From the IMG/VR virus record IMGVR_UViG_2529292759_000004: DNA of 21,500 nucleotides; one strand, 5' to 3'. Origin of the DNA: a virus. Its lineage: Duplodnaviria > Heunggongvirae > Uroviricota > Caudoviricetes. The notes beneath the pieces are model-generated. The model was not told the DNA's origin and ran no database searches. It worked only from the letters and a program-made list of their open reading frames with translations. A program made the position numbers and the translations under genes. Below are positions 7,437-8,815 of the stretch, piece after piece (position 1 is the stretch's first letter; each line of letters opens with the position of its first letter).

Positions 7437-7464
7437 GCAAAGAAAACCCGGCGCTGAGGCCGGG
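7437..7464 (-). terminator. Rho-independent terminator ending the cI-proximal operon
   Basis: Hairpin CCCGGC-gctgag-GCCGGG (7447-7464) followed on the minus strand by UUUUCUUUG; begins 5 nt after the stop of the 250-aa gene. Confidence 0.5.
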
Positions 7465-7469
7465 TTGTA

Positions 7470-8222
7470 TTATGCTGCAAGTCTCTTAACCCAAGTCTCT
7501 CTTTTGGAGAATGGTAGAACTTGGCTTGATTCATGGAAGAGTAAGGAGAGTTGTTGCATTTGATCACCAATTGCTTCGCTGTCTATAACAACAAATCTGT
7601 TGTTATACTCCTCACTTGAAGCTTTAAGATCAATTAGTTTCCCAAGCAATGAGTAAGCACTATTCCAGCTTCCTCCGTGTTTCACGCTTGATGTAAAAAC
7701 GTATTTAGGTATGTCGGTTTTTATTGTTACAGGGACGGTAATTTGATGTCCACTCAAGCCATATACGTTTTCACGAAGAGAAAGTGCGTCTCTAAGCTCT
7801 GTGTGATATAGATAATCAATAACCATACTTTCAAACTTTTCAGCTTGAACTGGCTGATACCAGTCTAACGACAAAGTTGATGCGAGTATACCAGCTCTAA
7901 TTATGTTCGATGTAATCGCACCGACATCCTTTTCTGTTGCCCAAGCAATGATTTCTCCTCGAGCATTGAGTTCTGCGCCTTCTTTAAGCAGTAATTGTCG
8001 TATCTCATCAAGTCGTTTTTTGGTAAGCGAGATCCCTCTTGCCTCCATATTCATTAAGGCATCGCATCTGTCACTAACTAAATACCTACCATTGACTTCA
8101 CGGATAAAGGCACCGACATGCTCTCCATCATCACAGTAAGTGAATGGACTGATAATTCTCAAGGTCTTGCCTATTGGATGGCATTCGAAACCTAGTTGTG
8201 AGATCACTGTTGAGCACATCAT
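7470..8222 (-). CDS. Hypothetical protein (250 aa), second gene of immunity-region cargo operon
   Basis: Long ORF co-directional with cI; its ATG (8220-8222) overlaps the stop of the upstream 185-aa gene (ATGA); no transmembrane segment or catalytic motif recognised; AT-rich. Confidence 0.7.
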   Translation of the reverse strand: MMCSTVISQLGFECHPIGKTLRIISPFTYCDDGEHVGAFIREVNGRYLVSDRCDALMNMEARGISLTKKRLDEIRQLLLKEGAELNARGEIIAWATEKDVGAITSNIIRAGILASTLSLDWYQPVQAEKFESMVIDYLYHTELRDALSLRENVYGLSGHQITVPVTIKTDIPKYVFTSSVKHGGSWNSAYSLLGKLIDLKASSEEYNNRFVVIDSEAIGDQMQQLSLLFHESSQVLPFSKRETWVKRLAA

Positions 8223-8776
8223 ATTCCAAACCCCATTTGCCCCGACTCATCTTCAAGCGGTAAAGGTATTCTCCCAGAGTAAGTTATGTTCAGATGTTTA
8301 CAGAAGTAATTCCAATACCCTACCAGGTCATCTGGGTTTATGTCATCTTCGATTGGAAACGCTATTCTATCACTATAGTATCCAGCTTCTTCATAGTATA
8401 CATGGTAGTGAGCACCGTAAATGATATCTTGGTACTTCGGATGATCGACCTTGTAACTATTCGTGTGTTTGTCAAAGTGATAGGTATCTACCGCGAAAAC
8501 CCTCTTGTTATGATAGAAAGCAATAATATTTATTTTAGGGTAAGAAATCGGGTCATCAGGTTCTGAATCCTGATCTGGTTTCCATTTCAGTTCAAACTTT
8601 AGCCCTTGTATAGGTATACAATCCTCATCCAAGGGGATGATATGGGCTTGTAGCCACATATCAGAGCGACTTGGTTTCTGTTTCCATTTAACGCCAGAAA
8701 AGTTAACTATTTTTTTACAATAAAGTACTTTATCAACTTCTACTTGGCTTGGCTGATAATCATCTATTTTTGCCAA
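8219..8776 (-). CDS. Hypothetical protein (185 aa), first gene of immunity-region cargo operon
   Basis: ORF starts 40 nt after the cI stop on the same strand. The track start at 8776 is TTG (first internal ATG is codon 40), so the true start is uncertain. Tyr/His-rich segment HYHVYYEEAGYY; no family recognised. Confidence 0.65.
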   Translation of the reverse strand: MAKIDDYQPSQVEVDKVLYCKKIVNFSGVKWKQKPSRSDMWLQAHIIPLDEDCIPIQGLKFELKWKPDQDSEPDDPISYPKINIIAFYHNKRVFAVDTYHFDKHTNSYKVDHPKYQDIIYGAHYHVYYEEAGYYSDRIAFPIEDDINPDDLVGYWNYFCKHLNITYSGRIPLPLEDESGQMGFGI

Positions 8777-8815
8777 TGTTTACCGCCCTGTAAATTGTAG
8801 ATAAAAGTGGTTTCA

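Follow-up and report, generated by a model that had tools for sequence, protein, structure and literature searches.

A conserved two-gene cassette behind the cI repressor gene of lambdoid prophages as a candidate lysogen-expressed anti-phage module

The stretch of viral DNA analysed here (IMG/VR record IMGVR_UViG_2529292759_000004, Caudoviricetes; 21,500 nucleotides (nt), referred to as the window) contains, right behind the gene for the cI repressor and on the same strand, two small genes, here called A and B. The two genes form a conserved cassette, and the reading favoured for it, with moderate confidence, is that of a two-protein, prophage-encoded anti-phage module, carried as cargo in the variable slot between cI and N. 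Between 7300 and 9600 there is 100% identity with the temperate coliphages ev207, ev017, PhiR57_1 and PhiR63_2, and the annotation of PhiR57_1 describes a classic lambda-type early region, composed of exo-bet-gam-kil-cIII-ea10-ral, sieB, N, two hypothetical genes, cI, cro, cII, O, P, ren, the nin genes and Q.

On the minus strand the order of the elements is cI, A, B, terminator, pL, nutL and N. The first gene of the operon, cI, covers positions 8816-9511 (Pfam HTH_3, E in the 4.1e-10 range; Peptidase_S24, 1.3e-28; named cI in PhiR57_1). Its stop, at 8816, is followed by a spacer (8777-8815), in which no hairpin or terminator-like site was found, and then by gene A (8219-8776; 185 amino acids (aa), TTG start), whose product is WP_001062368.1. 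A previous reading of the window, made from the letters alone and referred to as the sequence-only reading, had placed both genes correctly, on the strand of cI and right behind it, but had given 40 nt for the spacer, which measures 39. The ATG of gene B (7470-8222, 250 aa, WP_000968518.1) overlaps the TGA of A as ATGA at 8219-8222, as stated in that reading, where the two genes were described as translationally coupled. Three nt past the stop of B, a hairpin at 7445-7466, with an 8-bp stem containing six GC pairs and a T-rich tail, forms a rho-independent terminator, which closes cI-A-B and is equivalent in position to tIMM of lambda. Beyond it are found pL and the oL operators (7224-7298; single sites 7224-7240, 7249-7265 and 7282-7298, with 0-1 mismatch to operators annotated in the Stx1-converting phage AP005153), located downstream of the cassette and firing away from it. 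A nutL-like element (7150-7177, minus strand) follows, read from the sequence as a boxA-like GGCTCTTTA at 7169-7177, so assigned by its resemblance to boxA of lambda, and a boxB-like hairpin at 7150-7162, also picked up in a hairpin scan. The antiterminator gene N (6761-7105, minus strand; annotated as 6761-7033 and identified by the PhiR57_1 annotation) completes the series. The succession of terminator, pL, nutL and N had been described in the same way from the letters, and the pair does fill the cI-to-pL interval used by lambda for rexAB.

On the other side of cI, three 17-mers (9484-9500, 9510-9526 and 9542-9558), exactly matching operators annotated in AP005153, mark oR with pRM and pR (9484-9558), the presumed promoter region for cI-A-B in the lysogen. 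Two operators (9484-9500 and 9510-9526) are overlapped both by the long cI open reading frame (ORF), which extends to 9517, and by the version with the annotated start at 9511. Because the operators overlap the 5' end of the long ORF, the annotated start is probably too far upstream, the likelier ones being the ATG at 9475 or that at 9469 (MKMKWYEL...); the cI transcript from pRM is possibly leaderless, as in lambda. An internal promoter for A and B was considered and rejected: promoter-like matches in the region, including one in the spacer, are at chance level (5 found against 6.3 expected). No terminator separates cI from the cassette, and there is nothing to halt read-through from cI.

The cassette was reported in the sequence-only reading as visibly AT-richer than its neighbours. 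It is AT-richer than the window, since the GC content is 38.2% for A and 40.6% for B, compared with 45.7% for the window, 46.5% for cI, 47.4% for O and 53.3% for P; at third codon positions the values are 0.36 and 0.34, against 0.44-0.58. The contrast is, however, a moderate one, and the neighbours on the pL side are AT-rich as well (sieB, for example, 41%).

Close homologues of both proteins are spread over Enterobacterales and also occur in Aeromonas. Both genes were scored in 16 loci from genomes or assemblies, which represent at least eight genera, Aeromonas among them; A directly precedes B in every one, and the TATGATG junction which contains the overlap is retained in 15 of them. The start codon of A is TTG or GTG in 15 of 16 orthologous loci, ATG being found only in Thorsellia; the conservation of so weak a start suggests that a low level of expression is favoured. 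In each pair compared, A is more divergent than B (for example 68% versus 78%, and 37% versus 54% identity). Synonymous sites are saturated in comparisons with orthologues, which makes the dN/dS ratio unusable; the proportions of differing nonsynonymous (pN) and synonymous (pS) sites were therefore compared. Values of pS range from 0.72 to 0.89, while pN is 0.13-0.24 against enterobacterial orthologues and reaches 0.31-0.43 only in the most distant loci. As pN is far below the saturated pS, A and B are shown to be real genes under purifying selection.

A scan of IMG/VR with a diverse B alignment produced 80 loci. A is located upstream of B in all of them, and an S24-type cI precedes the pair on the same strand in 79, mostly within about 15-215 nt; clustering of these cI proteins gives 26 groups at 90% identity and 10 at 50%. 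The association of homologues with cI, suggested by the sequence-only reading as a point to survey, is borne out by these counts. In the remaining locus (L093, 2652-3369) a 137-aa repressor-like protein of another type and an 80-aa membrane ORF are found upstream of A-B; cro- and cII-like genes are present, and the site is still an immunity region. The setting of every locus examined is a lambdoid immunity region, in which the repressor gene is followed on its own strand by A and B and next by an N-like gene, with a cro-type gene in the opposite direction. This layout extends to remote members: an A homologue with 22% identity is still part of a cI-A-B arrangement within a prophage, and A relatives at 24-25% identity have, next in line, a partner gene similar in size to B, with a DUF1828 match in two of three cases. 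One distant pair, on a contig of only 3 kb, adjoins a resolvase gene and lacks a recognisable repressor. A and B thus constitute a conserved cassette, one unit.

Within Escherichia coli, the exact cassette is present in 239-250 of 5,426 complete genomes, in each case on the chromosome and with an identity of at least 99%; carriers include the species type strain ATCC 11775 and ATCC 25922, whose DNA is 100% identical. A second allele, coding for proteins of 180 and 258 aa, about 41% and 51% identical to A and B, is common in E. coli prophages, such as those of ED1a (CU928162.2; loci L028-L033, 4471-5777). It is also located directly behind cI, in one case within a lambda-like backbone with the gene sizes of the window.

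The interval between cI and N of lambdoid phages is known as a hotspot of mosaic diversity, occupied by rexAB in the case of lambda and by bstA in that of BTP1 (Owen et al. 2021, PMC8585504). Different cargo fills this slot in phages with a 97-98% identical cI: a 283-aa protein without family match in 2G7b and PhiR11_1 (L025, 2196-3047), a 173-aa ORF, also without family match, in Stx1/Stx2 phages (L026, 1963-2484), and a 285-aa NYN-domain protein in E212 (L027, 1673-2530; Pfam NYN 6.8e-9, with a weak PADLOC match to HEC-09). These three proteins are further defence candidates. In Izhakiella and Providencia prophages a 113-aa DUF3024 gene, corresponding to the PADLOC candidate PDC-S43 (E 1.4e-38), is inserted between cI and A (L011, 5044-5385; L013, 5053-5394; L014, 5052-5393), so that two defence candidates are stacked in one repressor operon. 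Since phages with the same cI carry other cargo there, the slot is swappable, and A-B behaves like a mobile cassette, recurring behind many unrelated cI alleles.

Protein B belongs to PHROG 1960 (E 1.6e-106), a family with no assigned function, and matches Pfam DUF1828 (PF08861) over residues 26-110 with 33.5 bits, against a cutoff of 22. Its AlphaFold2 model (mean predicted local distance difference test score (pLDDT) 83.8) consists of two domains. By structural similarity, the N-terminal one (about aa 1-116; 7875-8222, minus strand), which corresponds to DUF1828, resembles the fold of YbjN, DUF2170 and type III secretion chaperones, and the C-terminal one (about aa 125-250; 7473-7850, minus strand) is a DUF1829-like domain with the PD-(D/E)xK, restriction-endonuclease-like fold; the matches were allotted to residues 1-116 and 125-250 by target size and order of secondary structure. 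In the model, the C-terminal domain contains the predicted alpha-beta-beta-beta-alpha-beta core of that fold. A published HHblits result for B, reporting DUF1829 of the PDDEXK clan at residues 155-241 with 98.8% (PMC13092281), agrees with the assignment. The sequence-only reading had recognised no nuclease signature and no assignable motif in either protein; at the level of fold the former statement is wrong, and the latter does not hold for B, which carries both domains. At the positions where catalytic residues would be expected, judged from secondary structure without structural superposition, B has S157-G158-H159, where one member shows R in place of the H, and K173, which is not conserved. 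In the C-terminal domain the invariant residues are limited to S157, G158, W186 and D198; those of the N-terminal domain are S25, P26, D32, D51 and E90. A search by sequence found no relatives of B with a solved structure.

Protein A is assigned to PHROG 2017, also a family without assigned function. A profile search of 1.84 billion representative proteins returned 20 clusters, with members of 76-184 aa, the shortest being probably fragments; all 20 consist of stand-alone proteins, with no domain fusion. The model (pLDDT 82, predicted template modelling score 0.81) is mostly beta, and its fold has no match among solved or viral folds. Residues K22, W31, R92, D97, N106, G121, H123, H125, F158 and P173 are invariant in the family, and H104 is nearly so. 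The Tyr/His-rich segment pointed out in the sequence-only reading was located at residues 121-150; its HYHVYYEE stretch holds the GxHxH motif G121-A-H123-Y-H125 (codons 8402-8416, minus strand), invariant in alignments A1 and A3, down to 21% identity. Together with D97, H104 and N106, the motif looks like a candidate metal or active site, as judged from conservation. Readings of GxHxH as part of a cupin, an alpha-carbonic anhydrase (HxHxW) or an HNH nuclease found no support in the fold searches. The C-terminal tail (173-182; P173-L-E-D-E-S-G-Q-x-G) is highly conserved among close homologues and has low confidence in the model. This pattern is typical of a docking peptide, and because type III chaperone-like folds bind extended peptides, the suggestion is made that the tail may bind the DUF1828 domain of B.

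A match of A to the designed Kelch propeller SAKe6AC-LB (8pjr; E 4e-6, 2.9e-12 with a profile) was discarded as a repeat artefact, being the sum of six copies of one weak match, each of about 7 bits with an individual E of about 33, in which 'nGRIYAVGGYDGNTHLN' is aligned to the A hairpin 'RiyAvD..H.N'. The hairpin in question, RVFAVDTYHFDKHTN (about residues 83-108, window about 8453-8530), is conserved and resembles one Kelch blade motif, GRIYAVGGYDGNTHLN. Both proteins are devoid of transmembrane helices, as the sequence-only reading had observed: the maximal Kyte-Doolittle score over 19 residues is 0.45 for A, which is soluble, and 1.19 for B, with no stretch above 1.6 in either, compared with 3.03 for the SieB protein used as a control.

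Comparison with catalogued defence systems gave no named system: PADLOC returned only models of the candidate PDC-M24, and NCBIfam nothing. The match of B to PDC-M24B (4.7e-10) covers the whole protein, while that of A to PDC-M24A (4.8e-4) is confined to residues 104-163. PDC-M24 is a two-gene candidate with profiles of 148 and 255-256 positions, in accord with the sizes of A and B, and the distant relationship would extend to both components. Seven matches were found among 15 A-family members, with at most three members for each model, so that a minority of the family is reached. The PDC-M24 relatives are located in restriction, BREX and DISARM loci, whereas the A-B branch resides in prophage repressor operons; the surveyed A-B loci are not embedded in known defence systems, and the only candidates in their neighbourhood are PDC-S43, in three loci, and sieB, beyond N, in the window and its close relatives.

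A second approach, DefensePredictor (DeWeirdt, Mahoney & Laub, Science 2026, PMC13092281), gives the label 'predicted novel defense gene' to the two exact proteins, whose genes share a transcription unit in an E. coli reference strain, with log-odds of 5.64 for WP_000968518.1 and 4.90 for WP_001062368.1 against a stringent cutoff of 4. The term 'unrecognised', used for the pair in the sequence-only reading, is thus superseded by the supplement of that work. The pair is already flagged computationally as defence; what is unfamiliar are the proteins, which have no known mechanism, and A, which has no recognisable fold. In the literature PDC-M24 appears in no paper text, while DUF1828 and DUF6978 appear only in incidental gene lists.

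Some validated systems share features with the cassette. According to Table S6 of the same study, DS-34, a validated defence system, is composed of cI and a downstream gene (PMC13092281). BstA homologues are repeatedly located behind repressors (PMC8585504). Like A-B, the defence genes of both come straight after a prophage repressor gene, whose promoter they presumably share. BstA differs in being a single protein, and no BstA match is among the PADLOC hits of A or B, with the presence of a BstA model in the library unconfirmed. The only validated system with a DUF1829 domain is DS-6/HipAD, made up of a HipA-like kinase and a DUF3037-DUF1829 protein, the latter proposed to be a DNA-binding, antitoxin-like subunit and not a nuclease (PMC13092281, where DS-6 is the one context in which the main text brings up DUF1829); it differs from A-B in that the partner is a kinase and DUF1829 is joined to DUF3037 instead of DUF1828.

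The defence reading is favoured because two computational approaches, independent of each other, PADLOC with PDC-M24 and DefensePredictor, point to it, and because the slot is home to rexAB and bstA, and the validated DS-34 has the same layout. The patchy distribution of the cassette, its AT-richness, the second allele, the faster divergence of A, the non-ATG start of A and the low pN are features typical of defence cargo. The constant order of A and B behind cI, the swappable slot, the joining of a chaperone-like with a nuclease-like fold in B and the presence of DUF1829 in the validated DS-6/HipAD also speak for this reading. Several observations weigh on the other side. The PDC-M24 match of A is weak and partial; PDC-M24 itself is one, untested, of 145 candidates collected for being embedded in known defence loci (Payne et al., 10.1101/2024.01.29.577857). 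The match of A to Pfam DUF6978 (PF22398), limited to residues 104-164, scores 22.0 bits, below the gathering cutoff of 29.6, and distant A relatives likewise remain below it. Canonical D...(D/E)xK residues were not found in B across relatives down to 26% identity; for this reason the nuclease fold may be a binding module or a non-canonical enzyme, and no effector activity can be named with confidence. A search of the available DefensePredictor supplements located neither accession in Table S6, which covers the 94 tested units, and only 45% of the tested units gave a phenotype with 24 phages (PMC13092281). No experimental evidence of phage exclusion by A-B or any homologue was found in the literature covered, from which Brenes & Laub 2025, where such a test is possible, was absent. 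Co-transcription with cI is deduced from the layout, and the near-absolute link to repressor genes equally fits a role in the lysogeny switch.

If the cassette is a defence module, as favoured here, it could operate as follows. In the lysogen A and B would be expressed from pRM, at the end of the cI transcript, and while lysogeny is being established also from pRE. New transcription would cease on cleavage of cI, as pL is located downstream and fires away. The ATGA coupling would fix the proportion of A to B and the TTG or GTG start would keep their level low, with the two proteins forming a complex. Within it, the DUF1828 domain of B would serve as a protein- or peptide-binding module, holding either the tail of A or a protein of the incoming phage, and the DUF1829-like domain would bind nucleic acid or cut it by a non-canonical route. 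Given its cluster of R92, D97, H104, N106, H123 and H125, A is the likeliest of the two to catalyse or to switch in a metal-dependent way; the effect might be delivered by this histidine cluster or by the degenerate nuclease fold of B. The effector would be set free or become active when a heteroimmune or virulent phage superinfects the lysogen, resulting in loss of phage nucleic acid or in abortive infection. A more far-reaching version, in which the module is mechanistically new, combining a histidine-cluster metalloprotein of new fold (A) with a chaperone-like sensor and degenerate nuclease (B), and in which the wiring into the repressor operon is a functional coupling to lysogeny, for example by arming the module only while repressor is made, disarming it on induction and providing built-in self-immunity, is regarded as doubtful.

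A first alternative is that A and B are accessories of the lysogeny switch, modulating maintenance or induction of the prophage, for example through detection of DNA damage or of phage DNA and an effect on the repressor operon; lambda RexA has been reported to influence the bistable switch in such a manner. This branch of the family is found essentially only behind prophage repressors, the repressor being of S24 type in 79 of 80 loci and of another type in the 80th, down to 22% identity of A; RexA has been reported to bind and repress pRM (PMC12894663), and DNA binding is what has been proposed for the DUF1829 protein of DS-6. The cassette is nevertheless located behind at least ten unrelated cI families with different operators, and for this reason cannot depend on a specific repressor or operator. 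Phages sharing the same cI do without it and carry unrelated cargo, the distant PDC-M24 relatives reside in restriction, BREX and DISARM loci and not in prophages, and the pair next to the resolvase gene, on its 3-kb contig, has no recognisable repressor. A role in the switch is consequently considered improbable. A different view of the two small coupled genes and the conserved weak start is that of a toxin-antitoxin-like addiction or stabilisation module, in which a growth-arresting toxin and its neutraliser would ensure retention of the prophage. The proposed antitoxin-like role of the DS-6/HipAD DUF1829 protein, as partner of a kinase toxin, is in keeping with it, and as many such systems act in defence, there is overlap with the anti-phage reading. 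Pfam, NCBIfam and PADLOC did not, though, connect either protein with a family of toxins or antitoxins, and neither has a helix-turn-helix or ribbon-helix-helix autoregulator domain; both proteins are folded, similarly conserved and not obviously labile, and a prophage is already stabilised by integration. The chances of this explanation are judged to be even slimmer.

Lower again is the credence given to lysogenic-conversion cargo unrelated to phages, which would affect host physiology, stress tolerance or virulence. The window does hold a porin gene and bor, the cassette is present in clinical and commensal reference strains, and bstA was linked to virulence phenotypes before its defence role was found (PMC8585504); against this, A and B, which lack a signal peptide and any transmembrane segment, are cytoplasmic, both defence-prediction approaches flag the pair, and the known occupants of the slot are exclusion systems. 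A divergent RexAB, finally, can be practically dismissed. Position, gene number and strand are all that is in common: two same-strand genes right behind cI, a terminator before pL and presumed expression in the lysogen. RexB is a multi-pass inner-membrane protein, while neither A nor B has a hydrophobic segment. The products of lambda rexA and rexB have 279 and 144 aa, in this order, compared with 185 and then 250 aa here. In addition, no Pfam RexA or RexB match was obtained at E <= 1, PADLOC called no named system and the folds are unrelated; a known RexAB variant, the outcome which according to the sequence-only reading would have explained the pair away, is not what is present.

The immunity region of the window contains a second exclusion function, the superinfection-exclusion gene sieB (6163-6744, plus strand; Pfam SieB 2.5e-22, PHROG 1301), located just past N; in ATCC 25922 an IS3-family element is inserted beside it. 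At 5080-5138, on the minus strand, the Rfam family Lambda_thermo, the cIII thermoregulator, is matched with 88.5 bits (E 1e-20), the only Rfam family above gathering score in the window. Further lysogenic-conversion cargo is represented by a 380-aa porin gene, named OmpD in PhiR57_1 (15076-16218, minus strand), between Q and the lysis genes, and by a bor-like gene (17949-18290, minus strand), after the lysis cassette.

The survey reveals a cargo cassette which is strictly tied to the repressor operon and yet hops between immunity types, a property useful for mining lambdoid prophages. Its kind, defence cargo in a lambdoid repressor operon, is familiar; the proteins themselves are not. If active, the pair would add a mechanistically unassigned defence system to the classic rexAB slot, one easy to study, being present in about 4.5% of complete E. 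coli genomes, including ATCC 11775 and the control strain ATCC 25922. It would also provide the first function for DUF1828 and the first system-level context for the DUF1828-DUF1829 architecture, as well as a role for the small A family, with its 20 clusters among 1.84 billion representatives and a fold matching nothing solved.

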